Shown here in pieces: positions 10,613 to 57,195 of a stretch of DNA of 63,277 nt. Source of the stretch: Kiloniellales bacterium (GTDB lineage: Bacteria; Pseudomonadota; Alphaproteobacteria; Kiloniellales; JAKSBE01); NCBI GenBank assembly GCA_028282935.1, contig JANQGU010000093.1, forward strand, positions 1 to 63,277, in the 5' to 3' direction. Under the pieces are notes generated by a model. That model saw only the letters and a program-made list of their open reading frames with translations. It had not been told where the DNA came from and ran no database searches. The translations under genes and the position numbers were made by a program. Within the stretch, counting starts at the first letter, position 1, and each line of letters begins with the position of its first letter.

Positions 10613-10621
10613 GGGCGCCGT

Positions 10622-10732
10622 CCCCTCACCCTCCCACCGCTCCGCGGCGGGCTCCTCCCTCTCCCAGGGGGAGAGGGATGTGGAGGCTTGGCGAGGCCAA
10701 GGGCCGAGCCTTAGCCGGAGCTGGGTGAGGGG
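10622..10732. repeat. Family B intergenic repeat, copy B1
   Basis: It has termini CCCCTCACCC and GGGTGAGGGG, an internal CTCCCTCTCCC-ag-GGGGAGAGGGA hairpin, and a conserved core TGTGGAGGCTTGGCGAGGC...GCCGAGCCTTAGCCGGAGCTGGGTGAGGGG. It lies between convergent genes. Confidence 0.9.
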
Positions 10733-10750
10733 ATCGCCGGACATGACACC

Positions 10751-11452
10751 TCACACCGACAGCAGACCCAATAGCCGCTCCCGGTCGGCGGCGAGGGCGG
10801 CGGCGTCGCCCTGCCAGACGATGCGGCCCTTCTCCATCACGCTGTGGCGGTCGGCGAAGGCCGTAAGCTCCTTCAGGTTCTTGTCGACGATCAGGATGGT
10901 CAGGCCGGCCGCCTTGAGGCGCCGGAAGCAGGCCCAGATCTCGGCGCGGATCCTGGGCGCCAGGCCCTCGGTGGCCTCGTCGAGGATCAGCAGCCGCGGG
11001 TTGGTCATCAGGGCCCGGCCGATGGCGAGCATCTGCTGCTCCCCGCCCGAGAGGGTCCTGGCGTATTGGCCGCTGCGCTCCCGCAGCCGCGGGAAGAGGC
11101 CGTAGACGGCGTCCAGGTCCCAGGCCGTCCCCTCGGCGAGCGGCGGCCGGGCGGTCGCGACCAGGTTCTCCCGCACGGTGAGGGTGGGGAAGACCTGGCG
11201 GCCCTCGGGCACCAGCGCGATGCCCAGGCGGGCCATGCGGTGCGACGGCAGGCCGGTGACCTCGCGGCCGTCGAAGAGGATCCGCCCGCCGCTCGGCTTC
11301 AGCAGGCGCAGGATGGCGCGGATGGTCGTGGTCTTGCCCATGCCGTTGCGGCCCATCAGGGTGACGACCTCGCCGGCCGCGACCTCCAGGTCGACGCCGA
11401 AGAGCACCTGCAGCGGGCCGTAGCCGGCGCTGAGTGCTTCAAGACGCAGCAT
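10751..11452 (-). CDS. livF: Branched-chain amino acid-type ABC transporter ATP-binding protein (LivF-like)
   Basis: MLRLEALSAGYG..., Walker A GRNGMGKTT, signature LSGGEQQM. The ATG at 11452 lies inside the 3' end of livG (14-nt overlap). Confidence 0.85.
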   Translation of the reverse strand: MLRLEALSAGYGPLQVLFGVDLEVAAGEVVTLMGRNGMGKTTTIRAILRLLKPSGGRILFDGREVTGLPSHRMARLGIALVPEGRQVFPTLTVRENLVATARPPLAEGTAWDLDAVYGLFPRLRERSGQYARTLSGGEQQMLAIGRALMTNPRLLILDEATEGLAPRIRAEIWACFRRLKAAGLTILIVDKNLKELTAFADRHSVMEKGRIVWQGDAAALAADRERLLGLLSV

Positions 11453-12227
11453 CGGTGGCCTCCCCCTCCCCGGTCTGGTCCTCGCTTTCCCCAAGATAGG
11501 CCTCGCGCACCGCCGGATCGTCGCGCACCGCGGCCGGCGGCCCCTCGGCGATGACCCGGCCCAGGCTCATGACCGCGATGCGGTCGGCCAGGGCGAAAAC
11601 CGCGTCCATGTCGTGCTCGACTAGCAGCAGCGCAACCCGGCCCTTGAGGCCGCGCAGCACCTCGATCATGCGCTGCGAGTCGGCGCCGGCCATGCCGGCC
11701 ATGGGCTCGTCGAGCAGCAGGACCCTGGGCTCGGCGGCCAGGGTCATGGCGAGCTCGAGCTGGCGCTGCTCGCCGTGCGCCAGCTCGGCCGCCGGCAGCC
11801 CGGCGCGCTGGTCGAGGCCGACCGCCTCCAGGGCGGCCCGGGCCGGCGCGGTCAGGCGGACATCGCCGCCGGCCGGGCGCCAGAGGCCGAAGCTGCGGCG
11901 GCTCTGGGCCTGGACCGAGAGCATGACGTTCTGCAGCACGGTGAACTCGGGAAAGATCGAGGAGGTCTGGAAGGTCCGGCCGAGCCCGGCCAGCGCCCGG
12001 GCGTGGGCCGGCAGCCGGGAGATGTCCCGGTCTTCGAAGAGGACCTGCCCCGCGTCGGGCGCCAGGGCGCCGGCGAGCTGGGCCAGCAGGGTCGACTTGC
12101 CGGCGCCGTTGGGGCCGATCAGGGCCAGGCACTCCCCGGCCGTAAGGTCCAGCGTCACCGCCTCGGAGGCGACGACAGCGCCGAAGCTCTTGCAGAGGCC
12201 GCGGACGGAGAGCAGGGCGGCGGTCAT
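11439..12227 (-). CDS. livG: Branched-chain amino acid-type ABC transporter ATP-binding protein (LivG-like)
   Basis: Walker A GPNGAGKST, an LSHGEQR-like signature (LAHGEQRQLE), and ATGA coupling to livM. Confidence 0.85.
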   Translation of the reverse strand: MTAALLSVRGLCKSFGAVVASEAVTLDLTAGECLALIGPNGAGKSTLLAQLAGALAPDAGQVLFEDRDISRLPAHARALAGLGRTFQTSSIFPEFTVLQNVMLSVQAQSRRSFGLWRPAGGDVRLTAPARAALEAVGLDQRAGLPAAELAHGEQRQLELAMTLAAEPRVLLLDEPMAGMAGADSQRMIEVLRGLKGRVALLLVEHDMDAVFALADRIAVMSLGRVIAEGPPAAVRDDPAVREAYLGESEDQTGEGEATDAAS

Positions 12228-13198
12228 CGGCTCAGCCTCGCCTCGAGCCAGCCGAGCAGGCCGCGGCGCGAGAAGAGCGCGACCAGGACCAGGATCGGCC
12301 CGAGCACGAACATCCAGTGCTCGGTGAAGCGGCCCAGCACCTCCTCCAGCAGGACCAGGGCGGCGGCGCCGAAGACCGGACCGATCAGGGTCCCCATGCC
12401 GCCGAGCAGGACGATGACCACCAGCTCGCCGGACTGATGCCAGGACAGCAGGGTCGGGCTGACGAAGAGGTCGAGCTCGGCCTGCAGGGCGCCGGCCAGG
12501 GCGGTCCCGGCGCCGGAGATGGCGTAGACCGCGAGCTGGTAGCGGCGCAGCGGGAAGCCCAGCGCCGCCATGCGGCCCGGGTTCTGCTTGGCGCCGCGCA
12601 GCACCATGCCGAGCCGGGCCGCGACCAGGCGCCGGGCCAGCAGGAAGTAGCCGCCGAGCAGGATGAGACAGAGGTAGAAGAAGGTCACGTCGTCGCCGAG
12701 GTCGAGGCCGGGAAACTCGGCGCGGGCGAAGAGCACCAGGCCGTCCTCGCCGCCGTAGCGCGGCAGCGAGATGAAGAAGTAGTAGAGCATCTGGGCGAAG
12801 GCCAGGGTGATCATGATGAAGTGGACCCCGGCGGTGCGCAGGCAGATCGGCGCCAGGACCGCCGCCAGGAGACCGCCGGTCAGCATGGCCAGGGGCCAGG
12901 TTACCAGGGCCTGGGCGCTGCCACCGATCTCGAAGGGCCAGGTCATGAAGGCGCTGCCGTCGAAGGCGTGGCTGGCCAGGATGCCGGCGGTGTAGGCGCC
13001 GATGCCGAGGAAGGCGGCGTGGCCCAGGCTGACCAGCCCGCCGTAGCCGAGCACCAGGTCGAGGGCGACCGCCGCCAGGGCCAGGATCACCACCCGGGTG
13101 AAGAGGGTGACCAGGAAGGGGTCGTCGAAGAGCCAGGCCGCCAGGGGCGAGAGCGCGAGCAGGCCGAAGGCGGCGGCGATCAGGAGGACCCGGGTCAT
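12224..13198 (-). CDS. livM: Branched-chain amino acid-type ABC permease (LivM-like)
   Basis: It is a hydrophobic multi-TM protein with typical LivM length and position. Confidence 0.8.
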   Translation of the reverse strand: MTRVLLIAAAFGLLALSPLAAWLFDDPFLVTLFTRVVILALAAVALDLVLGYGGLVSLGHAAFLGIGAYTAGILASHAFDGSAFMTWPFEIGGSAQALVTWPLAMLTGGLLAAVLAPICLRTAGVHFIMITLAFAQMLYYFFISLPRYGGEDGLVLFARAEFPGLDLGDDVTFFYLCLILLGGYFLLARRLVAARLGMVLRGAKQNPGRMAALGFPLRRYQLAVYAISGAGTALAGALQAELDLFVSPTLLSWHQSGELVVIVLLGGMGTLIGPVFGAAALVLLEEVLGRFTEHWMFVLGPILVLVALFSRRGLLGWLEARLSR

Positions 13199-46918: not shown

Positions 46919-47842
46919 TTGCCTGATGAACAACGAAACAAGCAAATTGTTCCCGAGGACGCTTGGCGGCTGATCCTCGCGGTCCGGCAAAGGCTTCGCG
47001 GTGACGGCTTTCCTCTCGACGGCCTCGGCTTGCGCGGCGACCCGGCCGGGTCGACCGGCTTCGTGGCCGCAAACGAAGCAGACGCGCTGCTCGCGGTCAA
47101 CCGTGATGGCACCTGGACCAGTATTACCGAACCCTCTCAAGAGGTTAGACACCTGCTCGACCTCTATCTGCCGGTCGCGCTGGGCTCCGAGAGCCAGCCC
47201 TCGACCCTGGGCCATCTGGGCCAGAGCCTGGACGGCCGGATCGCGACCGAGGCCGGCGACTCGTACTACGTCACCGGCGAGGAAAACATCCTCCACCTGC
47301 ACCGCCTGCGGGCGCTGAGCGACGCCGTGATCGTCGGCGCCGGCACGGTCCTGCACGACGATCCGCAACTGACAACGCGCCGGGCGCCGGGCGACAACCC
47401 GGTGCGCGTGGTCATCGACACCGAGCGCCGCCTGGAGGGGCACTACAAGGTCTTCACCGACAGTGAGGCGCCGACCCGGCTGGTCAGCCGCGCCGGCGCA
47501 GGGACGGGATCGGACCCGCTGCCGGAGCACGTCCAGGTCATGGAGATCGAGGCCCCGGAGGGCCGGATCCCGCCGGCCGCGATCGTCGCCGCGCTGCGCG
47601 CCGAGGGCCTGCACAGCCTCTTCGTCGAGGGCGGCGGCGTGACGGTCTCGCGCTTCCTGGCCGCCGGGGTACTGGACCGGCTGCAGGTCGCGGTGGCGCC
47701 GCTGATCATCGGCTCCGGACGCCCGGCCTTCACCCTGCCGGCGGTCGACAGCCTGGCCGAGGCGTGGCGCCCGCCCTGCCGCCGCTTCGAGATGGGCGAA
47801 GACGTGCTGTTCGACTTCGATCTGCGGGGGCAGGAGGGCTAA
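46919..47842 (+). CDS. RibD C-terminal domain (DHFR-like pyrimidine/pterin reductase fold) protein without deaminase domain, with ~95-aa N-terminal extension
   Basis: The TTG at 46919 lies 6 nt after GGAGAG. Motifs are GQSLDGRIA, DAVIVGAGTVLHDDPQLT, VRVVID and LFVEGGGVTVSRFL. There is no HAE/PCxxC deaminase motif. Confidence 0.7.
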   Translation: MPDEQRNKQIVPEDAWRLILAVRQRLRGDGFPLDGLGLRGDPAGSTGFVAANEADALLAVNRDGTWTSITEPSQEVRHLLDLYLPVALGSESQPSTLGHLGQSLDGRIATEAGDSYYVTGEENILHLHRLRALSDAVIVGAGTVLHDDPQLTTRRAPGDNPVRVVIDTERRLEGHYKVFTDSEAPTRLVSRAGAGTGSDPLPEHVQVMEIEAPEGRIPPAAIVAALRAEGLHSLFVEGGGVTVSRFLAAGVLDRLQVAVAPLIIGSGRPAFTLPAVDSLAEAWRPPCRRFEMGEDVLFDFDLRGQEG

Positions 47843-47851
47843 GGGGCCTGG

Positions 47852-47966
47852 CCCCTCACCCAGCTCCGGCTAGGCTCGGCCAAAGGCCTCGCCAAGCCTC
47901 CACATCCCTCTCCCCCCGGGAGAGGGAGGGGCCCGCAGCGCGGCAGCGCTGTGGGAGGGTGAGGGG
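47852..47966. repeat. Family B repeat, copy B3 (inverted relative to B1 and B2)
   Basis: CCCCTCACCCAGCTCCGGCTAGGCTCGGC...GCCTCGCCAAGCCTCCACATCCCTCTCCCCCCGGGAGAGGGAGG...GGGTGAGGGG. Confidence 0.9.
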
Positions 47967-47983
47967 TGCGCCTCTCCCTCTCC

Positions 47984-48790
47984 TCACCCCTCGCTGGGAA
48001 AGGCGAAGAGGTCCTCGTGGCCGACCCGGAGGCGGGCGTCGGCGCGGGTCGCGAGGCGGCGGCGGCGGGCCGCCCAGTCGCGGAGCTCCTCGGCGCGGGC
48101 CGGGCCGATCTCCTCCGCCGCGGCCAGAAAGCCCTCGAGCAGGGCCAGCTGCAGCTTCCGCTCGCCGGCCTCGATGACCCAGTCGCTGGGCGCGGTCTCG
48201 ACCCGGAAGCCCTTGGCGATCAGGGCCCGCGCCATGTGCTTGGGCGCCTCCGGCCCGAGCGCCGGGCCGAAGCCCTTGTCCTCGCCCTGATGCCGGTTGA
48301 AGAGCTCGCGGACCAGTCCATCCAGGCGCTCCGTAGGCCTGAACTCCATGACGCCGTCGTAGGTCAGCACGAAGAAAACCGCGCAGCCGGCCGCCCGGCA
48401 GGCCGCGGCCAGGCGGTCGAACCAGTCCGCCGACACCAGGTCCATCAGCGCCGAACCGGTCACCAGGTCGATCCCGGAAAGATCCAGGCCGGCCAGATCC
48501 TTCGCCAGATCGAGCTGGCGGCAGGCGATCTCGACCCCGGCGGGAACCTCGTTGGCGGCGGCCCGCTCCAGCAGGGCCTCGTCGTGATCGACCAGGGTCC
48601 AGCTCTGCGCCACCTTCAGCCGGGGCGCGAGGAAGCGGAGGTTGGAGCCGGTGCCGCTGCCCAGGTCGAGGATCCGGAGCTTCTGCTTGCCGGCGCAGAA
48701 GGCGGCCAGCCGCTTGGTCAGCTCGGGCGCGCGGGCCCGGGCGTCGGCGGGCTCGCGCAGCGCCAGCCAGTCGGCGGAGAAGCCGCTCAC
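47984..48790 (-). CDS. Class I SAM-dependent methyltransferase
   Basis: It has SAM motif I ILDLGSGTGSN, is 268 aa, and has ATGA overlap with the glycosyltransferase gene. Confidence 0.8.
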   Translation of the reverse strand: MSGFSADWLALREPADARARAPELTKRLAAFCAGKQKLRILDLGSGTGSNLRFLAPRLKVAQSWTLVDHDEALLERAAANEVPAGVEIACRQLDLAKDLAGLDLSGIDLVTGSALMDLVSADWFDRLAAACRAAGCAVFFVLTYDGVMEFRPTERLDGLVRELFNRHQGEDKGFGPALGPEAPKHMARALIAKGFRVETAPSDWVIEAGERKLQLALLEGFLAAAEEIGPARAEELRDWAARRRRLATRADARLRVGHEDLFAFPSEG

Positions 48791-49887
48791 CGTGCCGCCC
48801 CTTCCGCACTGTATCCCCCCGCTCCGTAACCCAGGGCCTCGGCGAAGAGCGCGGCGCTGTCGGACCAGCGCCGCAGGCCGTCACGGGCGCTTCGGGCCTT
48901 GGCGCGGAGCTCGGCGTAGGCGGCCGGCTCCGCGAGCAGGCGGCGCAGCGCCGCGGTCAGCGCGGCCTCGTCGCCCGGCGGCACCAGGATCGAGGCCTCG
49001 GCGGGCGCCGCCTCGGGGATTCCGCCCGTCCGGGTCGCCAGGACCGGGATGCCGTGGGCGACCGCCTCGGGAAAGACCATGCCGTAGCCCTCGTAGTGGG
49101 AGGCCAGCACGAAGAGATCGGCTCCATGATAGAGCGCTTCCAGCTCGGCGTCGCCGATTTCGCCCCGGAAGGTCACACGATCGTCCAGGCCGGCCTCGCC
49201 GCAGAGGCGGCGCAGGCGGCCGGTCCAGTCCGGATCGCGCGCCTGGCTGCCGGCGCAGGTCAGCCGCCAGTCCAGGTCCGCGAGCCGCGCCAGGGCGCCG
49301 AGCAGCAGGTCGTGGCCCTTGCGCGGCACCAGGTTGGCGACGCAGAGCAGGGCTAACCCGCCTTCGCCCGGCCCCCCCGACCCCGAAGCCCCCGACCCCT
49401 CAGCCAGGGGCGCCGGGTCGACCCCGGGCGGCACCGGCGTGATCCGCCCGGCGGGCACGCCGTAGGGCGCCAGGGCCTCGGCGGTGTGCCGGCTGGTGGT
49501 GATGACCTGCGAGACCAGTTCCAGCGCCGTCCTCTCCGAATCGAAGAGCGCCTGCTGCCGCTCGGGGGCCAGGCCGCTCTCGGCGGCCAGGGGATGGTGG
49601 ACCAGGCCGATCAAGTCGAGCCGGGCCGCGGGGCCTTTCAGCTCCTCGGGCAGGACGCCGAGGGCCAGGCCGTCGACCACCACCCTTGCGCCCTCCGGCA
49701 GGCCGGCGAAGAGCGCCCTGGCCTGCGCCCGGGTCGCCGGCGAGGGCTCGGGGAAACCGTCGGGCAGGCTGTGCACCACGACCTCGAGGCCCCGCGCCCG
49801 CAGGCCTTCGATGATCCGGGCATCGTAGATGAAGCCGCCGGTCCGGGTCGCCGGATCGCCGGGCAGGACGAAATGGAGCCCCGTCAC
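48787..49887 (-). CDS. Glycosyltransferase family 4 (GT-B, group 1)
   Basis: It is 366 aa. The C-terminal region has an EX7E-like stretch (SHYEGYGMVFPEAVAHGIPVLATRTGGIPE). Confidence 0.8.
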   Translation of the reverse strand: MTGLHFVLPGDPATRTGGFIYDARIIEGLRARGLEVVVHSLPDGFPEPSPATRAQARALFAGLPEGARVVVDGLALGVLPEELKGPAARLDLIGLVHHPLAAESGLAPERQQALFDSERTALELVSQVITTSRHTAEALAPYGVPAGRITPVPPGVDPAPLAEGSGASGSGGPGEGGLALLCVANLVPRKGHDLLLGALARLADLDWRLTCAGSQARDPDWTGRLRRLCGEAGLDDRVTFRGEIGDAELEALYHGADLFVLASHYEGYGMVFPEAVAHGIPVLATRTGGIPEAAPAEASILVPPGDEAALTAALRRLLAEPAAYAELRAKARSARDGLRRWSDSAALFAEALGYGAGGYSAEGAAR

Positions 49888-49908
49888 GCTGGTTTGCGGC
49901 CCCTCGTC

Positions 49909-50307
49909 CTAAAGAGTGCCTTCGTAAGCCGCCCAGGCCACGTGGGACTCGTTGAGCGTGACCTTGAGCGCGGTGAGGCCCGAGGCGTTGGGGCCCAGGT
50001 CGCCGCGGGCGATGGCAGCCGCCATGCGGTCGAAGATCACCCGGGCCATGAACTCGGTCGTGGTGTTCTTGCCGTCGAACTCGGCCACCTCGTCGAGGTT
50101 CTGGAAGTTGAACTCGCCGAGCGTCTTGTGCAGCTGCTCGCCGGCCAGCCCGATGTCGACCACGATGCCGTCGGCGTCCAGCTCGTCGCGGCGGAACTCG
50201 ACGTCGACCACGTAGGTGGCCCCGTGGAGCTTCTGGGCCGGGCCGAAGACCTCGCCCCGGAAGCTGTGCGCGATCATGAAATGGTCTCTGACGCAGACGC
50301 TGTACAT
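49909..50307 (-). CDS. Atypical 6-pyruvoyl-tetrahydropterin synthase / QueD-fold (T-fold) protein
   Basis: It is 132 aa with FMIAHSF and [12 protein letters not shown]. The canonical CxxxHGH is replaced by AQKLHGA, so the catalytic Cys and the third zinc His are missing. Confidence 0.65.
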
Positions 50308-50310
50308 TCC

Positions 50311-51288
50311 TCATTCCCCATAGGTGATCCGGTGACAAAGCACACCGGCCGGGGCTTGGTATAGCGAGCGCAGGGTCTCTGGCAATGCCCGAAACGCGGA
50401 CTCGCCGCTGATCAGAGCGTCGAGCCGCGGCTCGGCCAGCAGCTCCAGGGCCTTGGCCAGGCGCCGGCGATGGCTCCAGCGGGCCCGCCGGGCCGTCGCC
50501 ACCTGGCCGACCTGGGACGACTTGAGGGTCAGGCGCCGGGCGTGGAAGGCCTCGCCCAGGGGCAGGGCCACCGCGCGGTCGCCGAACCAGCTCATCTCGA
50601 CCACCGTGGCCTCGAAGCCGGCGAGGCCCAGCGCCGTGACCAGCCCCTCCGGGGCCCCGCTGGCGTGGACCACCAAGTCGCAGTCGGCCGCGGCGGCCTC
50701 CGGCAGGGCGAAGGGGACGCCGAGCGCCTCGGCGATCCCGGCCTTGTCCGGGTCGATGTCGAGGAGCTGCACCCGACAGCCCGGGATCCGCGCCGCCAGG
50801 TGGGCGACCAGGCAGCCGACCACACCGGCACCGATCACCGCGATCCGGTCGCCCGACCGCGGCGCGGCGTCCCAGAGGCCGTTGAGCGCGGTCTCCATGT
50901 TGGCGCCCAGCACGGCGCGGCCGGCGGGCAGGCCCTCGGGCAGGGGCAGCGCCACGGCCTCCGGCACGAGGTAGCGGGTCTGGTGCGGGTGGAGGCAGAA
51001 GACCTCACGGCCCAGAAGCGCCTCGGGGCCCCGCTCGACCAGGCCGACGCTGCAGTAGCCGTACTTGACCGGCCAGGGAAAGTCGCCCTCCTGGAAGGGC
51101 GCGCGCATGGCCTGGTACTGGCTGGCTGGCACCCCGCCGCCGAAGACCAGGCACTCGGTGCCGCGGCTGATGCCGCTGAACAGCGCCCGGACCAGGACCT
51201 CGCCTTCGCCGGGCGCCGGCAGCTCGGCGGCGCGGATCTCGCCGGCCAGCGGCCCGGTGATCCAGAAGGCCTCGGCGGCGTCTGTCAC
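50311..51288 (-). CDS. Medium-chain dehydrogenase/reductase, BchC-like (no catalytic-zinc Cys/His)
   Basis: It has a GroES-like N-domain with GISRGTE in place of GxCGSDxH, and a Rossmann motif [13 protein letters not shown]; 325 aa. Confidence 0.75.
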
Positions 51289-51294
51289 GGCGGG

Positions 51295-52047
51295 TCAGGC
51301 CCGGGCTTTGAGGCGGCAGTAGACGTCACCCGAGAGGTCGTCGATGGCCAGGTTGTCGAGCCAGGCGCCCAGGGCGCCGGCGTCGCTCCACTGCGGCAGC
51401 TCGAAGCGCATGTGCTCGCCCATGGAGACGTTGAACTCGTAGTCGCCGAGCGTCAGCAGACGCTCGATGCAGGCGTGGGCGCCGTCGAGCGCGGCCGGGA
51501 TGAACTCGAAGGAGAGGCAGGGCAGGGCCGCGCCCAGGCCCTTCAGGACCTCCGGCTCGAAGCCCTCGACGTCGATCTTGCAGTAGGCCGGCGGGCCGTG
51601 CTGCGCGATCAGGCTGTCGAGGGTGGTGACCTCGACGGTGACGCGGCTGTCCCAGGAGACCTGGCTGAAGGAGGCGGCGCGCCCGACCGACTTGATCCAG
51701 TCGCGCGACAGGGTAGTCACCGTCGGAAAGCGGCTGCTGACGTAGAGCTCGGCCTCGCCGGGGCCGGCGCCCAGGGCCTTGTCGACCAGGGTGACCTCGG
51801 GGTTGTCGCCGTAGAGCCGGCGCAGCAGCCACTGGAAGCGGGGCTGCGGCTCGACCGCGACCACCTTGGCGCCGAGCTTGAGCATGGTCCGGATATGGTT
51901 GCCGACGTGCGCCCCGACGTCGAAGCAGAGGTCGCCGGGGTTGATGAACTGCCGGTAGAAGCTCCGGTGGGCCCGGCTGCGCAGCGGGTTTCCATAGTAG
52001 ATCGAGACCGAACGGGCGAGCCCGCGGAGCTCGCTGAAGGCCATCAT
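51295..52047 (-). CDS. FkbM family methyltransferase
   Basis: ATGATG at 52047 lies 11 nt after GGGAGGA. Motifs are FDVGAHVGNH, AVEPQP and KIDVEGFE. Confidence 0.8.
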   Translation of the reverse strand: MMAFSELRGLARSVSIYYGNPLRSRAHRSFYRQFINPGDLCFDVGAHVGNHIRTMLKLGAKVVAVEPQPRFQWLLRRLYGDNPEVTLVDKALGAGPGEAELYVSSRFPTVTTLSRDWIKSVGRAASFSQVSWDSRVTVEVTTLDSLIAQHGPPAYCKIDVEGFEPEVLKGLGAALPCLSFEFIPAALDGAHACIERLLTLGDYEFNVSMGEHMRFELPQWSDAGALGAWLDNLAIDDLSGDVYCRLKARA

Positions 52048-52072
52048 GACAGCTCTTGTCCTCCCAAAGCTG

Positions 52073-52097
52073 GCGCCCGCCGGGGAGCGGCGGGCGC
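52073..52097 (-). other. Perfect 10-bp stem-loop between the CDP-OH-transferase/YceI gene and the FkbM gene
   Basis: GCGCCCGCCG-gggag-CGGCGGGCGC lies 10 nt after the stop. It has only a weak U-tract, so it may be a partial terminator. Confidence 0.35.
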
Positions 52098-52106
52098 GAC
52101 AGGCAT

Positions 52107-53513
52107 CTAGTCCTGGCGGATCGCCTCGAACTCGATGATCAGCTCGACCTCGTCGCCGACCCAGCCGTTCTCGACGGCGTAGGTCATGCCGAACTCGCTG
52201 CGCTTCACGGTGCCGCGCACCGAGACGCCGACGACGTAGGGCGGGCCGGCGCCGAAGGGGTAGTCGCCGATCTTGTTCTTGGTGACCTGCAGGGTGATCG
52301 GCCGGGTGACGCCCAGGATGGTCAGGTCGCCGGTCACCTCGCCGCTGTTCTCGCCGGTGGCGCGGGCCTCGCGGCCGACGAAGCGGATCTCCGGATGGTC
52401 GTCGACGTCGAGGAAGTCGCCGCCCTTGACGTGCTCGTCGCGCCGGTCGTGGTTGGTGAAGACGCTGTCGGCCTGGATCGTCACCTCGATATCGGAGACC
52501 GCGGGCGCGGCCTCGTCGAAGGTGAAGCTGCCGCCGCCCTTGAGGAACATGCCCAGGGTGTCGGCATAGCCGATGTGGTGCACCAGGAAGCCGACGCTGA
52601 AATGGGCCGGGTCGATCTCGTAGCGGGCCGACGCCGCCTTGGCCGGCGACGCCACGGCGAGCGACAGGACGCCGCCCAGGACCGCGACCAGGGCCAGCCA
52701 GGTCGCGCGCTGGCTGCAGGCCAGCCATCTCGAATCTCTCGACACGCTTTCTTGTCTCCTCTGCCAAGCCTGTCCGATCAGCCCGGAAACGTCGCGGACG
52801 AAGGACGCGATCAACGCGGTCAGGCCGATCGCCGCGAGCCAGGCGCTCCAGTCGGCCGGCACGACGGGTGCCAAGCATATGACCAGCGCACCGACTTGTA
52901 GAGCGCAGATTGCCTTACGGCGCAAGCTGGGCGGCAGGGGCGCGCGCAGCGGCGCCCAGGCCAGGCTGGCGGCGACGAAGAGGTAGCGCAGCAGCCCGGA
53001 CAGCAGGATCCAGGGCCCCGCCTTCTCGGCGTTCAGGACCAGCAACGAGAGCACCAGGACGAAAAGGGCATCGGTCTCCATGTCGAAGCGGGCGCCAAAG
53101 TGGGTGCATTCCTGGCGTTTCCGGGCCACCCAGCCGTCGACGCCGTCGAGCAGGAAGGCGACCAGGGCCAGGGAGAAGAACAGCCAGGACAGCCGCGCGT
53201 CCAGCGCGGCCAGCACCAGAGCCCCGGCGAGCGGGCAGATCAGGATCGCCCGGGCCAGCGTGATCCCGTTGGCGCAGCCGAAGCTGCCGCCGGGCAGGAA
53301 GCGGCTGGCCGCGACCAGCACCCCCAGGACGACCAGGGCGCCCAGGCACAGCGAGGCGGCATAGTAGGGCAGGCCCAGGTCCATGCCCGTGGCAATGCCG
53401 GCGGTGAGGCCGGTCAGGAGGGTGGTCGCGCCGAGCAAGGCCAGGACGATGCTGGGAGCGGGGACGGTCGGCAGGCTGGTCGGTCTCGGTCGCATTCTTG
53501 GTCTCGGGATCAT
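52107..53513 (-). CDS. CDP-alcohol phosphatidyltransferase fused in frame to a periplasmic YceI-like (polyisoprenoid/lipid-binding) domain
   Basis: The N-terminal multi-TM part has a complete DGx2ARx8Gx3Dx3D motif (DGVDGWVARKRQECTHFGARFDMETD). One extra TM/signal-like segment (WLALVAVLGGVLSLAVASPAKAA) follows. Then comes a YceI domain (YEIDPAHFSVGF...TGDLTILGVTRPI...EFEAI). There is no stop codon between the two parts. Confidence 0.75.
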   Translation of the reverse strand: MIPRPRMRPRPTSLPTVPAPSIVLALLGATTLLTGLTAGIATGMDLGLPYYAASLCLGALVVLGVLVAASRFLPGGSFGCANGITLARAILICPLAGALVLAALDARLSWLFFSLALVAFLLDGVDGWVARKRQECTHFGARFDMETDALFVLVLSLLVLNAEKAGPWILLSGLLRYLFVAASLAWAPLRAPLPPSLRRKAICALQVGALVICLAPVVPADWSAWLAAIGLTALIASFVRDVSGLIGQAWQRRQESVSRDSRWLACSQRATWLALVAVLGGVLSLAVASPAKAASARYEIDPAHFSVGFLVHHIGYADTLGMFLKGGGSFTFDEAAPAVSDIEVTIQADSVFTNHDRRDEHVKGGDFLDVDDHPEIRFVGREARATGENSGEVTGDLTILGVTRPITLQVTKNKIGDYPFGAGPPYVVGVSVRGTVKRSEFGMTYAVENGWVGDEVELIIEFEAIRQD

Positions 53514-54010
53514 TTTTGTCCCCTGAGGTGTTTATCAGGGCGGTTCCTAGTCTAACGCCGGGCGGTCCCGGTCTATTCCGTGCCGCCCAAATCCGACTGG
53601 CCCCCCGACTGGGCCGTGAACAACAATGGTCACGAAACCGTGGCCAGCCCTGGCGAAGAGGCCCAAAAGGCTTTATGTCCTTGGCGCGATGCGGGCCCAG
53701 GTCCAGCCGACCGGGGCCGCCGGAAAAACCGGCGGGGATGAGGCTGGACCGACGGCTCGAATCACTTGCCGCAGAACGAATTTCCTGCGGTGTCGCCAGG
53801 TTCGGCCCGTCGGGGGAGACGGATTAACTATATGCCGTGGGAGGATGCCTGCCGTGAAGACTTCGCTAAATATTGCCACAAAACTGTTCCTTTTCGTTGC
53901 GCTGCACAACAGCCAGTTTTCCCGCCGTGCGAGTGCATGAAGTCTCCCGCTTCCTGCGTTTGGACACTACGGACCTGTCAACAACTACTGGTTGAATTGC
54001 TTTGCGTGCC

Positions 54011-55921
54011 ATGATTGCTCCTTTACCCGACGCGCTCGACCGTTCCTGGTCCCTGACCGTTCGGCGGCGCCGCCTCCTCTTTGCCCTGCTGGTCGGCCTG
54101 ACCGTCGCCGCGGCGGTCTTCGTCATGGCCCGGATCCTTCTGGGCGACGGCCTCAACCTCTTCGAAGCGGGGATCCTCGGCTGCTTCGTGATGACCATCC
54201 CCTGGATCGCGATCGGCTTCTGGAACTCGGTCATCGGCGTGATCCTGGCCCTGGGCGGCCGCGGCGTCGAGAAGACCAGCCCCTTCATGTCCCGGGTCGA
54301 CCGCACGGCGCCGATCGGGACCCGGACCGCCCTGATCATGCCGATCTACAACGAGGATCCGGCACGGGTCTTCGAGCACATCGAGAGGATCCTCGGCTCG
54401 CTCGACGAGACCGGCGAGGCCCGCCACTTCGAGTTCTTCCTGCTGAGCGACACCAACAAGCCGGAGATCGCGGCCGAGGAAGAGCGCCGCTTCGCCGAGC
54501 TCTCGGCCCGCGACCCGCGGCCGGGGCGCCTGCACTACCGGCGGCGCCCGGACAACGTCGGCCAGAAGGCCGGGAACGTCCGGGACTTCTGCGAACGCTG
54601 GGGCGAGCGCTTCGACTTCATGATCGTGCTCGACGCCGACAGCATCATGACCGGCGGCAGCCTGCTCAACCTGGTCCGGACCATGCAGGCCAACCCGCGG
54701 CTCGGCATCCTGCAGACCCTGATCGCCGGCCTGCCGGCGCGCAGCGCCTTCGCCCGCATCTTCCAGTTCGGGATGCGCCAAGGCATGCGGACCTACACCA
54801 TGGGCAGCGCCTGGTGGCTGGGCGAGGACGGACCCTATTGGGGCCATAACGCGATCATCCGGGTCGCGCCCTTCATCGCCCATTGCGACCTGCCGGTCCT
54901 GCCGGGACGGGCGCCGCTGGGCGGCCGGATCCTGAGCCACGACCAGGTCGAGGCGGCGATGATCCGCCGCGGCGGCTACGAGGTCCGCGTCCTGCCCGCC
55001 GAGACGGGCAGCTACGAGGAGAACCCGCCGACGATCCTCGACTTCATCAAGCGCGACCTGCGCTGGTGCCAGGGCAACATGCAGTACTTCAAGCTGCTCC
55101 GCATGCCCGGCCTCCTGCCGATGGGCCGCCTGCAGCTGGTCCTGGCGATCCTGATGTACGCCTCGTCGCTGTTCTGGCTGGGCTTCCTGACCCTGAGCCT
55201 GGGCCAGGCGGTCGTCTTCGGCCTCGGCGCCGATCCCGGCGAGATCGCGCCGCTGGTCGGGACCTACTGGGGCAGCATCGATGCCGGCGCGGGCCTCGCC
55301 TTCTTCGTGGTGATGCTGGGCATGACCTTCACGCCCAAGTTCCTGGGCGTCATCGAGATCATGGCCCAGAGGACCAAGCGGCGGAGCTACGGCGGCAGCC
55401 TCCGGCTCCTGGTCAGCGCCCTGGTGGAGTTCGTCTTCTCGGTGCTGATCGCCCCGATCCTGGCGGTGGTGCACAGCATCTTCATCATCGGCCTGATGTT
55501 CGGCCGCTGCGTCACCTGGGAAGCCCAGGACCGTGACGGCCACCAGATCGGCCTTCGGGAGGCGGCCTCCGCCTTCTGGCCCCAGACCCTCGCCGGCCTG
55601 GGCTGGACCGGCGCGCTGGCCCTGACGGCCCCCAGCGTGCTGCCCTTCGCCTCGCCGATCCTGATCCCCTTGACCTTTGCGATACCTTTTGCCCTGATCA
55701 CCTCTCGTATGGATTTCGGCCGACTGCTCGCCCGCGTGCAGCTCTGCCCCATGCCCGAGGAGCTGATGCAGAGCAAGCGGATCGTCTTCGGCCAGGCCAG
55801 GCCGTCCCTGGCCGGCACCGGCGTCGAGGGCGTGCCGATCGTGGCCGAGGCGAGCCGGCAGGCGCCGGCCGCGGCCCTGGTGCGGACGCCGGAACAGACA
55901 GCGGACGGACGCTGGATATGA
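54011..55921 (+). CDS. opgH: Osmoregulated periplasmic glucan glucosyltransferase (OpgH/MdoH, GT2)
   Basis: Motifs are MPIYNED, LDADS, the RWCQGN-type motif (DLRWCQGNMQ) and flanking TM segments. An alternative start is the TTG at 54002. Confidence 0.85.
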   Translation: MIAPLPDALDRSWSLTVRRRRLLFALLVGLTVAAAVFVMARILLGDGLNLFEAGILGCFVMTIPWIAIGFWNSVIGVILALGGRGVEKTSPFMSRVDRTAPIGTRTALIMPIYNEDPARVFEHIERILGSLDETGEARHFEFFLLSDTNKPEIAAEEERRFAELSARDPRPGRLHYRRRPDNVGQKAGNVRDFCERWGERFDFMIVLDADSIMTGGSLLNLVRTMQANPRLGILQTLIAGLPARSAFARIFQFGMRQGMRTYTMGSAWWLGEDGPYWGHNAIIRVAPFIAHCDLPVLPGRAPLGGRILSHDQVEAAMIRRGGYEVRVLPAETGSYEENPPTILDFIKRDLRWCQGNMQYFKLLRMPGLLPMGRLQLVLAILMYASSLFWLGFLTLSLGQAVVFGLGADPGEIAPLVGTYWGSIDAGAGLAFFVVMLGMTFTPKFLGVIEIMAQRTKRRSYGGSLRLLVSALVEFVFSVLIAPILAVVHSIFIIGLMFGRCVTWEAQDRDGHQIGLREAASAFWPQTLAGLGWTGALALTAPSVLPFASPILIPLTFAIPFALITSRMDFGRLLARVQLCPMPEELMQSKRIVFGQARPSLAGTGVEGVPIVAEASRQAPAAALVRTPEQTADGRWI

Positions 55922-57195
55922 GCCAAACGCCAAGCCGCGAGAGGAGCGAACGGGACGTCCGTCTGGACTTCTTCCGCGGCTTGGCGATGTTCATCATCTT
56001 CATCGCCCACGTCCCGGCAAATCCCTGGGGCCGCTTCATCCCGGCCAAGTTCGGGCCCTCGGACGCGACCGAGATCTTCGTCTTCTGCTCCGGCTTCGCC
56101 TCCGCGCTGGCCTTCGGCAGCGTCTTCGTCAAGCGGGGCTTCTTCCTGGGCGCGGCGCGCATCATCTTCCGCGCCTGGCAGATCTACTGGGCCCACATCT
56201 GCCTCTTCCTGATGACCGCGAGCGTCGTCGTCCTGGGCACCGAGTACATCGCCATCAAGGACTACATCGGGCGGCTCAACCTCCATTACTTCTTCGACGA
56301 CCCGGCCAAGGGCGTCGTTCACCTTCTGACCCTGACCTACGTCCCGAACTACTTCGACATCCTGCCGATGTACTTCGGGGTGCTGATGATGATCCCGCTG
56401 GTCATGGCGCTGAGCCGGGTCCATCCCTGGCTGGCGATGGGCTTCTGCCTGGCGCTGTGGAGCCTCAACATGGCCCTGGGCTTCAACCTGCCAGCGGAGT
56501 GGTGGTCGGACCGGCCCTGGTTCTTCAACCCCTTCGGTTGGCAGCTCATCTTCTTCACCGGCTTCGCCTTCGCGTCGGGCTGGATCCGGCCGCCGGCGCC
56601 GAACAAGTGGCTGATCGGCCTGGCCCTCGCCTTCGTCCTGTTCATGATCCCGATGAAGTACGGCCCGATCTGGAAGAACGTCGAGGTCATCAACGCCATG
56701 AGCTACAGCCTGCTCTGGGGCTTCCAGAAGACCGACTTCGGCTTCCTGCGCTGGGTCCATTTCCTGGCTCTGGCCTACCTGGCGCTCTGCCTGCTGTCGG
56801 GCCGCGAGCAGGTCCTCAAGGCCGCCGCCTTCAAGCCGATCGTCAAGGTCGGCCAGCAGGCCCTCGCGGTCTTCGTCACCTCGATGGTGGCGGCGCAGGC
56901 CGGCGGCATGCTCCTGGATGTGATGGGCCGCGATCCGCTCGACTTCCTGGTCGTCAACCTCGGCGGCTTCGCCCTGCTGATCGCGGTGGCCTACACCGTG
57001 GGCTTCTTCAAGTCGGCGCCCTGGCAGCGCAAGCCGCAGCCGCAGCCGCCGCGCCTGGAGGTCGCGCCGGCGTCGGTTCCGGTCGCCGAGCCGGGCGGCG
57101 AGGACTCCAAGCCCGAGCCCACGGCCAAGCCGGTCGGCCCCCAGCCCACGCCTCTGATCCCGGCCGCACGGCGCCGGCAGCACCAGCGCCGCTGA
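55918..57195 (+). CDS. opgC: OpgC family acyl(succinyl)transferase membrane protein
   Basis: DFFRGLAMFIIFIAHVP, a multi-TM protein, with ATGA overlap to opgH. Confidence 0.8.
   Translation: MSQTPSRERSERDVRLDFFRGLAMFIIFIAHVPANPWGRFIPAKFGPSDATEIFVFCSGFASALAFGSVFVKRGFFLGAARIIFRAWQIYWAHICLFLMTASVVVLGTEYIAIKDYIGRLNLHYFFDDPAKGVVHLLTLTYVPNYFDILPMYFGVLMMIPLVMALSRVHPWLAMGFCLALWSLNMALGFNLPAEWWSDRPWFFNPFGWQLIFFTGFAFASGWIRPPAPNKWLIGLALAFVLFMIPMKYGPIWKNVEVINAMSYSLLWGFQKTDFGFLRWVHFLALAYLALCLLSGREQVLKAAAFKPIVKVGQQALAVFVTSMVAAQAGGMLLDVMGRDPLDFLVVNLGGFALLIAVAYTVGFFKSAPWQRKPQPQPPRLEVAPASVPVAEPGGEDSKPEPTAKPVGPQPTPLIPAARRRQHQRR

Follow-up and report, generated by a model that had tools for sequence, protein, structure and literature searches.

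Gene content of the locus

The window, here the whole 63,277-nucleotide stretch of contig JANQGU010000093.1 (Kiloniellales bacterium, Alphaproteobacteria), contains five co-directional minus-strand genes that are packed tightly into positions 47984–52047. The ORF listing and codon-position GC contents (GC3 of 0.91–0.94) agree on this arrangement, which a sequence-only reading of the same DNA had described with gaps of -4 to 21 nt. Intergenic distances along the FkbM, MDR, T-fold and GT4 genes are 6, 3 and 21 nt, respectively, and the GT4 and SAM-MT genes overlap by 4 nt. The five genes are listed first, followed by their neighbours.

51295–52047, minus strand: FkbM methyltransferase, 250 aa (Methyltransf_21 E 5.7e-14; TIGR01444 90.7 bits, cut-off 37.7)
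50311–51288, minus strand: zinc-less MDR-fold dehydrogenase, 325 aa (sub-threshold Pfam ADH_zinc_N; AlphaFold/Foldseek)
49909–50307, minus strand: PTPS-IV T-fold protein, 132 aa (Pfam PTPS E 2.3e-25; PDB 3D7J E 4.4e-50)
48787–49887, minus strand: GT4 (GT-B) glycosyltransferase, 366 aa (Glycos_transf_1 E 2e-30; Glyco_trans_1_4 E ~1e-30)
47984–48790, minus strand: class I SAM-MT, 268 aa (Methyltransf_25 E 3e-08); its start overlaps the GT4 stop
52107–53513, minus strand: CDP-alcohol phosphatidyltransferase::YceI (CDP-OH_P_transf E 2.8e-16; YceI E 3e-40)
46919–47842, plus strand: deaminase-less RibD_C reductase, convergent with the operon (Pfam RibD_C E 2e-37)
45623–46900, minus strand: GTP cyclohydrolase II, GCH II (TIGR00505 215.7 bits, cut-off 205.85)
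44547–45440, plus strand: creatininase-family amidohydrolase (Pfam Creatininase E 1.4e-71)
42811–44463, plus strand: ManC, mannose-1-phosphate guanylyltransferase/phosphomannose isomerase (TIGR01479 577.7 bits, cut-off 373)
54002–57195: opgH and opgC, directly downstream in the window

An NDP-sugar epimerase/dehydratase gene and ManC are neighbours of the cluster in the window.

The T-fold protein

The T-fold protein matches SCO6650 of Streptomyces coelicolor (PDB 3D7J; E 4e-50, ~60% identity) over its full length and, by sequence, is assigned as its orthologue and as a PTPS-IV member of COG0720. It contains FGPAQ, the signature that defines PTPS-IV (PMC5445326), a named subfamily that also appears in PMC5041015, and it shares with SCO6650 the longer motif FGPAQxLHGA and the loss of the Cys and of the Asp-His pair. 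The T-fold (PF01242) is common to QueD (PTPS-I) and mammalian-type PTPS (PTPS-II), and the window protein keeps the first zinc His (AHS, within DHFMIAHSF), the central HGH His, the NTTTE motif at a helix start and the anchoring Glu near the C terminus of those enzymes. It differs from them in having AQKLHGA for CxxxHGH or CxxxxxHGH and Asn-Phe for the Asp-His pair. Absence of the catalytic Cys and of one zinc His, as read earlier from the sequence, is seen in the translation: alignment to QueD indicates that two of the three zinc His are kept, with Ala at the third, and that the Cys-Asp-His triad is lost, so the protein cannot be a PTPS. It also falls below the NCBIfam cut-offs for QueD and PTPS (TIGR03367, 44 bits against 89; TIGR00039, 33 against 125). 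The pterin/purine-anchoring C-terminal Glu, E120 (NESH), is retained, and 60 columns are invariant in a cross-phylum alignment of 16 sequences. SCO6650 was crystallised in 2008, and Spoonamore et al. (2008) are said to have found neither metal nor ligand in the crystal, which would allow the T-fold protein a binding or scaffolding role instead of a catalytic one.

The sequence-only reading knew of no characterised pathway with this gene set, which overlooks the named PTPS-IV subfamily (PMC5445326, PMC5041015), the 3D7J structure and the published linkage of PTPS-IV to GCH II (PF00925) and RibD_C (PF01872), a neighbourhood that is the same in the window. Nothing essential differs from the SCO6650 system; traits of the window copy are its alphaproteobacterial host, FkbM in first position, CDP-OH::YceI upstream and ManC nearby. 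The T-fold protein is thus not new, and the window holds a further copy of a described, functionally unsolved family. No experimentally established PTPS-IV function or cluster product was found in the literature searched, in which the sole functional statement is an unpublished remark in Zallot et al. that ties PTPS-IV to F420. Close homologues bear generic names only, and none has an assigned unrelated function.

The MDR dehydrogenase

Replacement of the zinc-site motif GxCGSDxH by GISRGTE, which had been noted previously, is present in the MDR translation, where KYGY also stands in place of GHE. The Rossmann motif GAGVVG is followed by Asp177 at the end of strand beta-2, which is invariant in the alignment and suggests a preference for NAD(H). 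When the AlphaFold model (pLDDT 86.9) is compared by Foldseek, threonine, butanediol, idonate, sorbitol and xylitol dehydrogenases, all of MDR type, come out on top (TM 0.73–0.79, 14–19% identity); judged from this model, the protein belongs to the polyol-dehydrogenase structural neighbourhood. The earlier label ‘BchC-like’ reflects an N-terminal motif only (TIGR01202, 39.5 bits; cut-off 291). Every motif previously cited for the T-fold and MDR proteins was found in the translations, and motif comparison agrees that both core enzymes are without textbook active sites.

Conservation across phyla

Synteny, counted over 53 full-flank loci that represent six or more phyla, is very strong. A collinear block of MDR, T-fold, GT4 and SAM-MT genes occurs in at least 50 of these, beyond what chance would give, with individual counts of 52 for MDR, 52 for GT4 and 50 for SAM-MT. 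The block is found in Burkholderiales, Halomonadaceae, Rhodospirillales, Acidobacteriota, Gemmatimonadota, Myxococcota and Actinomycetota. Its median gaps are short (27 nt from MDR to T-fold, -4 nt from T-fold to GT4 and -8 nt from GT4 to SAM-MT), and in almost every locus the T-fold gene is immediately preceded by the MDR gene. GT4 and SAM-MT are fused in eight loci, and a T-fold::GT4 fusion occurs once (P0324). The five-gene operon is one copy of a cluster that is spread over many bacterial phyla.

Clustering of the five genes was expected from the sequence-only reading, and synteny in relatives holds for four of them; FkbM, first of the five in the window, is an accessory gene of varying position elsewhere (20/53). 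Co-occurrence with ribA-like, RibD_C, creatininase and CDP-OH-transferase genes nearby holds across phyla as well: RibD_C is linked in 47 loci, the CDP-alcohol phosphatidyltransferase in 44, GCH II in 24 and creatininase in 22. A functional unit was correctly recognised, but it is larger than five genes and takes in RibD_C and the CDP-alcohol phosphatidyltransferase. The PTPS-IV cluster has no conserved cytidylyltransferase or phosphatase, and the T-fold gene has no linkage to folE, queC or queE.

Neighbouring enzymes and membrane components

GCH II has a degenerate, RibB-like N-terminal region, and its true start is probably near 46813; the gene is called at 396 aa in a close relative (L081). 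The protein passes the equivalog cut-off and keeps the catalytic Tyr (KLRAYWLQ), which is conserved in 27 of 27 cluster-linked GCH II proteins. GCH II of the Tyr type releases formate itself and a deformylase is not needed, which leaves the role of the creatininase homologue in the cluster unexplained. That homologue scores below the MftE, creatininase and IolN cut-offs and, like RibD_C, below those of riboflavin enzymes. RibD_C has an N-terminal extension of ~95 aa and no deaminase part; its best PDB relative, 6p8c, is a 2,5-diamino-6-ribosylamino-4(3H)-pyrimidinone 5'-phosphate reductase (E 5.6e-32). For GCH II and for creatininase alike, fewer than half of the loci have a copy within 10 kb, so the case for a GTP origin rests mainly on RibD_C and the T-fold protein. 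ManC could supply the sugar donor. Its position is likewise occupied in L081, loci L001–L080 have no ManC match, and it is a neighbour in the lineage of the window only.

The CDP-alcohol phosphatidyltransferase::YceI gene shares its strand with FkbM and precedes it by 59 nt. It encodes the complete DGx2DGx2ARx8Gx3Dx3D motif and a YceI periplasmic lipid-binding domain, and the same fusion occurs in one other locus (L004). Further membrane-associated genes are frequent among the 53 loci: a sulfatase-like membrane protein in 29, YceI in 19 and an MprF-type flippase-like protein (LPG_synthase_TM) in 18. Membrane-component genes remain linked in Myxococcota and Actinomycetota despite rearranged gene order; seven of the 53 loci have none within 10 kb. 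The frequency of these genes, together with the CDP-OH transferase, argues for a lipid-linked or envelope product rather than a soluble glycoside. CDP-alcohol phosphatidyltransferases are also able to form soluble phosphodiesters, and their presence is therefore no proof of a lipid product.

The best solved relatives of GT4 are sucrose-phosphate synthase Tll1590, MshA and PimB', whose acceptors are sugar-phosphate, inositol-phosphate or phosphatidylinositol. The SAM-MT model (pLDDT 95.8) has only generic small-molecule methyltransferases as Foldseek matches. Sugars are often methylated by FkbM-family enzymes. The conserved cluster genes support the earlier proposal that the pathway includes glycosyl transfer and methylation; the latter would occur once or twice.

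Proposed pathway and alternatives

The analysis establishes the gene identities, the loss of canonical catalytic residues, the conservation of the GCH II Tyr, the co-localisation across phyla and the natural gene fusions. With them in hand, we tentatively propose, with a probability of roughly 0.4, that the cluster product is a GTP-derived, sugar-decorated and methylated molecule with a phosphodiester link to a lipid or envelope target, made by chemical steps that we infer as follows. Canonical GCH II would convert GTP to 2,5-diamino-6-ribosylamino-4(3H)-pyrimidinone 5'-phosphate, which the deaminase-less RibD_C paralogue would reduce to its ribityl form. In this product the 2-amino-4-oxo edge, which the anchoring Glu of T-fold pockets recognises, would be retained. 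The MDR and T-fold pair may then transform the ribitylaminopyrimidine or a pterin-like intermediate: in a plausible route, the MDR enzyme, zinc-less and probably NAD+-dependent, would oxidise a side-chain hydroxyl, and T-fold-assisted rearrangement or ring closure would give a pterin-like heterocycle. GT4 would add a sugar, with GDP-mannose from the adjacent ManC as the probable donor here, and SAM-MT, plus FkbM where present, would methylate the product. The CDP-alcohol phosphatidyltransferase could link it by a phosphodiester to diacylglycerol or another alcohol. In many genomes, the MprF-type LPG_synthase_TM protein may flip the product, the sulfatase (LtaS/EptA-like) membrane enzyme may transfer the head group and periplasmic YceI may bind it.

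A soluble cytoplasmic or secreted pterin glycoside, like biopterin glucoside or cyanopterin, with membrane genes that are unrelated or serve export only, is rather unlikely. Methylated sugars occur in cyanopterin, and a T-fold protein with the anchoring Glu, a reductase, GT4 and one or two methyltransferases, including an FkbM family that often acts on sugars, are all present. RibD_C reduction followed by MDR oxidation at C2' would formally equal the Amadori step of GTP cyclohydrolase I and could give dihydroneopterin phosphate. The logic of T-fold protein, reductase and GT-B glycosyltransferase is shared with the cyanobacterial/Chlorobium pterin-glycoside route, but that route uses GCH I, PTPS-II, a sepiapterin reductase (SDR) and a pteridine glycosyltransferase, whereas the window has GCH II and no GCH I, a T-fold protein that is not a PTPS, and MDR plus RibD_C but no SDR of the sepiapterin-reductase type. 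The nearest solved GT4 relatives are not pterin glycosyltransferases, and the membrane transferases have no counterpart in that route. Conservation of the CDP-OH transferase equals that of RibD_C (44 versus 47 of 53); its linkage survives gene-order changes in distant phyla, and in the window it forms a fusion with YceI. The analogy is weak, and the soluble pterin glycoside suggested by the sequence-only reading is borne out in part: the conserved unit with its sugar transfer and methylation stands, but that reading gave no weight to the membrane genes.

Decoration of an envelope glycan or periplasmic glucan, in which GT4, the methyltransferases, the CDP-OH transferase and the sulfatase-like transferase would modify LPS, osmoregulated periplasmic glucans (OPG) or a glycolipid with no GTP-derived heterocycle, is improbable. 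The T-fold, MDR and RibD_C proteins would then act on a sugar or polyol, such as a nucleotide sugar recognised via its guanine. The immediate proximity of opgH and opgC, the adjoining ManC and NDP-sugar epimerase/dehydratase genes and the sugar and polyol dehydrogenases among the structural neighbours of MDR are consistent with this. OpgG and OpgH families lie near the cluster in only 8–10 other loci of 80, however, and OPG and ManC links are limited to few lineages, whereas RibD_C, for which we know of no role in sugar metabolism, is linked in 47/53. To our knowledge, T-fold family substrates are purines and pterins only.

Least probable, in our view, is an ‘archaeal-type’ riboflavin/F420 precursor route to 5-amino-6-ribitylaminouracil phosphate, in which PTPS-IV could act as the missing pyrimidine deaminase for deazaflavin/flavin synthesis: the remark of Zallot et al. 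on F420 favours it and GCH II, creatininase and RibD_C mirror the ArfA, ArfB and ArfC (Rib7) logic of archaea and fungi, where ArfB is a creatininase-family formamide hydrolase, but unbiased clustering of all ORFs from 80 loci yielded no recurrent Fo-synthase or F420-type family, the Tyr-type GCH II would need no deformylase, and the window genes sit among MDR, GT4, methyltransferase and lipid-type transferase genes. MDR, GT4, SAM-MT and the CDP-OH transferase are linked to the T-fold gene more tightly than GCH II and creatininase, and none of them is known to take part in making riboflavin or F420.

For the preferred phosphodiester-linked, GTP-derived product, phosphatidylinositol-mannoside pathways, in which a CDP-alcohol phosphatidyltransferase uses a polyol phosphate before a GT4 mannosyltransferase acts, offer a comparison. 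They share with the window the pairing of a CDP-OH transferase with GT4 and a GDP-mannose supply gene, and differ in that the window has no inositol-phosphate synthase and the presumed alcohol is GTP-derived. To the models of PgsA, PssA and PIP synthase the CDP-OH transferase of the window is related only distantly, with E values of 1e-4 to 1e-6 and scores well short of the cut-offs.

Organization of the gene cluster

Genes of the window were identified by translation and by Pfam and NCBIfam scans. Shadow frames crowd raw ORF lists because the window has a G+C content of ~70%; codon-position GC singles out one coherent minus-strand gene set at 47984–53513. The genes of this set and its neighbours are listed below.

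Genes of the cluster and its surroundings
52107–53513, minus strand: CDP-alcohol phosphatidyltransferase fused to a YceI domain (Pfam), directly upstream of the FkbM gene with a 59-nt gap
51295–52047, minus strand: FkbM-family methyltransferase (TIGR01444, 90.7 bits)
50311–51288, minus strand: MDR-like dehydrogenase (325 aa)
49909–50307, minus strand: PTPS-fold (T-fold) protein (PF01242, E 2.3e-25)
48787–49887, minus strand: GT4 glycosyltransferase (Glycos_transf_1, E 2.1e-30; Glyco_trans_1_4, E 1.4e-30)
47984–48790, minus strand: class I SAM methyltransferase (SAM-MT; Methyltransf_25)
46919–47842, plus strand: RibD_C protein
44547–45440, plus strand: creatininase
within 40610–44463, plus strand: ManC (GDP-mannose synthesis), adjoining the cluster in this lineage
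41853–42812, minus strand: NDP-sugar epimerase/dehydratase, divergent from ManC
40610–41836, minus strand: class I/II aminotransferase, near ManC

The sequence-only reading had described five tightly packed minus-strand genes, from FkbM to SAM-MT, and this observation is confirmed by spacings of 6, 3, 21 and −4 nt and by the T-fold and GISRGTE motifs, which were found as quoted. A GC-rich inverted repeat without a T-run (GCGCCCGCCGCTCCCCGGCGGGCGC, 52060–52100) separates the stop codon of the CDP-alcohol phosphatidyltransferase gene from the ribosome-binding site of FkbM; an attenuator, a site of RNA processing and a REP-like element are possible roles for it. A scan of 44400–54200 returned no sigma-70-like promoter sites, and terminator-like sites there are no more numerous than in shuffled sequence. 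Neither the whole window nor seven related loci gave an Rfam match to a riboswitch or RNA leader at the gathering threshold. The arrangement of ManC, epimerase/dehydratase and aminotransferase recurs in a close relative of the locus (L081), which suggests a lineage-specific source of a modified GDP-sugar that is possibly the GT4 donor. Directly past the cluster, at 54002–57195 on the plus strand, lie genes for an OpgH-like GT2 (639 aa) and then OpgC (PF10129, E 1e-100); OpgG- or OpgH-like genes occur within 10 kb of the cluster in 8–10 other loci, mostly Halomonadaceae. They may reflect a link to periplasmic glucan decoration, or coincidence.

The T-fold protein is a PTPS-IV homologue

PTPS-IV is a COG0720 subfamily with an FGPAQ signature, set apart from PTPS-I/QueD (CxxxHGH), PTPS-II (CxxxxxHGH) and PTPS-III (ExxHGH), and its genome neighbourhood with PF00925 (GTP cyclohydrolase II, GCH II) and PF01872 (RibD_C) has already been published (PMC5445326). 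We place the window locus in this PTPS-IV/SCO6650 family because the three defining features tested are all present. The T-fold protein carries FGPAQ, with F21, G22, P23, A24 and Q25 invariant in an alignment of homologues (A1), and GCH II and RibD_C are both encoded within 3 kb of its gene. Its sole strong match among PDB sequences is 3D7J, 'Uncharacterized protein SCO6650' of Streptomyces coelicolor (phmmer E 4.4e-50 over residues 1–131, the full length; 60% identity). Sixteen sequences from Alpha-, Beta- and Gammaproteobacteria, Acidobacteriota and Streptomyces share the same residue at 60 of 132 columns.

Departure from the PTPS/QueD active site, already noticed by the sequence-only reading, is borne out. 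When aligned with E. coli QueD, the T-fold protein keeps H14 (first zinc His), H28 (middle His) and E120, the C-terminal Glu that anchors the substrate; it has no Cys, the third His is Ala30 and the Asp-His pair is Asn67-Phe68. Identity with QueD/PTPS-I is thus ruled out by these losses and by a sub-threshold TIGR03367 score (44.2 bits; cut-off 89.25), and PTPS-II by the missing CxxxxxHGH motif and a TIGR00039 score of 33.1 against 125.5 bits.

A word-indexed search gave at least 8000 homologues, the best 120 of which are 74–98% identical to the window protein; no exact copy is on record, and the locus of a 97% identical homologue (P0002) has the same gene order. Identity is ~60% to actinomycete SCO6650 and 63–80% across 80 proteobacterial, acidobacterial, actinomycete and other loci.

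A dehydrogenase without catalytic zinc ligands

The MDR sequence hardly registers as ADH_zinc_N in Pfam. It had been called BchC-like, a label that does not survive: the TIGR01202 match is confined to residues 10–57 and scores 39.5 bits against a cut-off of 291, and ORF clustering of related loci placed no bch family among the conserved neighbours, which rules BchC out. Its AlphaFold model, built with 26 homologues in the input (pLDDT 86.9, pTM 0.89), has the two-domain MDR fold (GroES-like plus Rossmann) and superposes on polyol, threonine, butanediol, idonate and sorbitol dehydrogenases (Foldseek TM 0.73–0.79, 14–19% identity). Neither catalytic zinc ligand is present: GISRGTE stands where GxCGSDxH would supply the Cys, and KYGYCSVG where GHE would supply the His. 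The first replacement, noted earlier, is upheld by translation, and Ser41 and Tyr78 are invariant at the former zinc positions in all 26 sequences of the MDR alignment (A2). In terms of catalysis, the residues show that the 50311–51288 protein is not a zinc MDR. An invariant Asp177 stands at the end of strand beta-2, after the GAGVVG Rossmann motif, and because of it the enzyme probably prefers NAD(H), by likeness to other MDRs.

Conservation across phyla

When one genome per GTDB species was scanned with a degenerate pattern, more than 594 loci proved to encode a relative. The best 80 were taken, each with flanks of up to 10 kb, and the 53 with full flanks were counted. The 80 loci sample Burkholderiales (Variovorax, Hydrogenophaga), Halomonadaceae, Wenzhouxiangella, Competibacteraceae, Rhodospirillales (Inquilinus, Azospirillaceae), Acidobacteriota, Gemmatimonadota, Polyangiaceae and Actinomycetota (Actinoplanes, Spirillospora). 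Co-occurrence was assessed by tblastn with the window proteins, by assumption-free clustering of all ORFs and by targeted tblastn on recurrent families.

Families recurring beside the T-fold gene (number of the 53 full-flank loci)
MDR: 52
GT4: 52
SAM-MT: 50
RibD_C: 47
CDP-alcohol phosphatidyltransferase: 44
Sulfatase-family polytopic membrane protein (about 590 aa): 29
GCH II: 24
Creatininase: 22
FkbM: 20
YceI: 19
LPG_synthase_TM (MprF flippase-domain) protein: 18

The cluster occurs in at least six bacterial phyla. An order of MDR, T-fold, GT4 and SAM-MT on one strand is near-universal, with median gaps of 27, −4 and −8 nt; loci from Myxococcota and Actinomycetota have a rearranged gene order, yet the same families remain together, including the CDP-alcohol phosphatidyltransferase and the flippase-like and sulfatase-like proteins. 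Median identity to the window proteins is 68% for T-fold, 61% for MDR, 48% for FkbM and RibD_C, 47% for GT4 and 42% for SAM-MT. Five-gene synteny in related genomes therefore holds for four members (at least 50 of 53 loci) but not for FkbM, which is present in 20 of 53 and is an accessory gene of shifting position. The suggested co-occurrence with ribA-like, RibD_C, creatininase and CDP-alcohol phosphatidyltransferase genes was found in 24, 47, 22 and 44 loci, respectively. The last of these had been listed as a neighbour; it adjoins the five genes and belongs to the conserved unit.

GT4 and SAM-MT form a single ORF of 634–681 aa in eight loci (L008, L019, L021, L035, L036, L045, L051 and L071, at about 10396–12400 in each) from Halomonadaceae, Lautropia and one Burkholderiales MAG; in the window the pair overlaps by 4 nt. 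T-fold is fused to GT4 in the homologue P0324. Solved relatives of GT4 have a phosphorylated sugar, a phosphorylated inositol or phosphatidylinositol as acceptor. No PDB relative of SAM-MT was found by sequence, and structure search with its confident model matched only generic class I small-molecule methyltransferases (TM ≤0.64) and so gives no substrate clue.

Membrane-associated components

The CDP-alcohol phosphatidyltransferase has a complete catalytic motif, in which DGVDGWVARKRQECTHFGARFDMETD fits D(x)2DG(x)2AR(x)8G(x)3D(x)3D (Pfam E 2.8e-16), and its only matches among PDB sequences are marginal ones to PssA (E 0.01). In the window an additional transmembrane segment connects it to YceI, a lipid-binding domain in the periplasm, and among 80 related loci this fusion recurs only in L004; elsewhere the two are separate adjacent genes. 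A membrane protein with a weak Sulfatase (PF00884) domain, reminiscent of the head-group transferases LtaS, EptA and OpgB, is encoded at L003:5869–7590 (minus strand), L038:3626–5320 (minus strand), L056:10004–11770 (plus strand) and in 26 more full-flank loci; the 63 kb of the window hold no copy of this ~590-aa protein. The recurrence of flippase-like, sulfatase-like (LtaS/EptA/OpgB-type) and YceI proteins beside the cluster argues that the product ends in or beyond the membrane.

The GTP branch

GCH II of the window scores 215.7 bits with TIGR00505 (cut-off 205.85), and its N-terminal ~230 aa have no Pfam domain and resemble nothing but the RibB-like portion of bifunctional RibBA models. 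Its longest ORF (45623–47614, minus strand, 663 aa) extends in antisense into the RibD_C gene; translation probably begins near 46813, since the gene annotated in the relative L081 has 396 aa, and this would leave a divergent promoter region of ~100 nt. The catalytic Tyr (E. coli Y105) is kept in KLRAYWLQ and in 27 of 27 cluster-linked copies. In 2008 Spoonamore and Bandarian reportedly found that SCO6655 of S. coelicolor owes its release of a formylated pyrimidine (FAPy) to a Met in this place. The linked enzymes should give the ordinary deformylated product because they keep Tyr rather than Met, and a FAPy-type GCH II with a deformylase is rejected for the cluster.

The RibD_C protein (Pfam RibD_C, 129 bits) has no deaminase domain and falls below cut-off for TIGR00227 (133.6 versus 150.15) and TIGR01508 (106.9 versus 186.45). 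Its best PDB relative is 6p8c, a 2,5-diamino-6-ribosylamino-4(3H)-pyrimidinone 5'-phosphate reductase (E 5.6e-32); the enzyme of M. jannaschii comes next. A Tyr-type GCH II next to a deaminase-less RibD_C protein resembling the 2,5-diamino reductases suggests an intermediate that keeps the 2-amino-4-oxo edge. That edge is the side bound in T-fold pockets through a conserved Glu. The creatininase is below the cut-offs for MftE, creatininase and IolN, with MftE the best NCBIfam match. A mycofactocin-like reading of the creatininase, glycosyltransferase and methyltransferase is rejected because MftE is sub-threshold and no radical-SAM enzyme or precursor peptide is among the conserved neighbours.

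A possible pathway and its alternatives

From the observed gene identities, lost catalytic residues, canonical GCH II, cross-phylum co-localization and fusions, we infer all the chemical steps of the following route. GTP would be converted to 2,5-diamino-6-ribitylaminopyrimidinone phosphate, a side-chain hydroxyl of which could be oxidized by the NAD-type MDR, and the T-fold partner may then rearrange or cyclize the product. A pterin is one possible outcome, since C1' reduction followed by C2' oxidation is formally equivalent to the Amadori step of GTP cyclohydrolase I. GT4 would add a sugar, with ManC adjoining the cluster in this lineage, one or two methylations may follow glycosylation, and the CDP-alcohol phosphatidyltransferase, with its complete motif, would make a phosphodiester. 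We give this composite, with a GTP-derived, glycosylated, methylated, phosphodiester-linked and membrane-directed product, a probability of about 40%. It is unlikely, though conceivable, that the cluster makes an envelope phospholipid or phospho-head-group of a hitherto unknown class, with a glycosylated, methylated GTP-derived heterocycle (ribitylaminopyrimidine or pterin-like, via GCH II) as its polar part. Such a head-group would be synthesized in the cytoplasm, attached by the dedicated CDP-alcohol phosphatidyltransferase, flipped and, in many species, passed on by a sulfatase-type enzyme.

A soluble pterin glycoside, the product originally envisaged for the five genes, would account for the cytoplasmic enzymes but leaves out the membrane set, whose conservation matches that of RibD_C, and we regard it as doubtful. 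The pterin-glycoside logic invoked for it fails on comparison: the cyanobacterial pathway combines GCH I and a catalytically competent PTPS with a sepiapterin reductase of the SDR type and a pteridine glycosyltransferase, whereas the window cluster has no GCH I or SDR and its T-fold protein lacks the PTPS residues. Decoration of an envelope glycan or OPG without a GTP-derived core could draw on the opgH and opgC genes adjoining the cluster here and on OpgG/OpgH in 8–10 other loci; these links are lineage-restricted and RibD_C is unaccounted for, which makes the idea improbable. An archaeal-type route to a riboflavin or F420 precursor is likewise improbable: an unpublished remark in Zallot et al. 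ties PTPS-IV to F420, and GCH, creatininase and RibD_C resemble the ArfA, ArfB and ArfC enzymes, but Fo-synthase or F420 families do not recur in 80 loci and MDR, GT4, the methyltransferase and the CDP-alcohol phosphatidyltransferase are left without a role.

Significance and eukaryotic homologues

PTPS-IV is among the most conserved 'known unknown' enzyme families of bacteria, with a crystal structure since 2008 yet no reported function; full-text literature searches for its experimental function, product or activity returned only bioinformatic papers. Beyond earlier descriptions (PMC5445326, PMC5041015), this analysis shows how large the conserved unit is and what it contains, above all the CDP-alcohol phosphatidyltransferase and other membrane proteins, and adds natural fusions and haptophyte triple-domain homologues. 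A conserved lipid-type phosphotransferase, often with flippase-like, sulfatase-like or YceI proteins, shifts the hunt for the product from soluble pterins to the lipid/envelope fraction. If this product is a GTP-derived lipid head-group or a cofactor-like glycoside, it would represent a new branch of purine-derived metabolism. The family is at once recognizable to a COG0720 specialist, and the window is no easier to test than cultivable carriers.

Haptophytes (Emiliania huxleyi, Gephyrocapsa oceanica) have proteins with three tandem PTPS-IV-like domains, in effect single-chain trimers (P0241, P0242, P0246, P0248 and P0253 among the homologues). Two forms, 824–855 aa in length, possess a long C-terminal extension that contains a motif like that of class I SAM-MTs; its similarity to the window SAM-MT is not significant (E 0.13), and its use as a Rosetta stone for that enzyme was rejected. 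Domains 1 and 3 of the haptophyte proteins keep FGPAQ.LHG, and domain 2 is degenerate.
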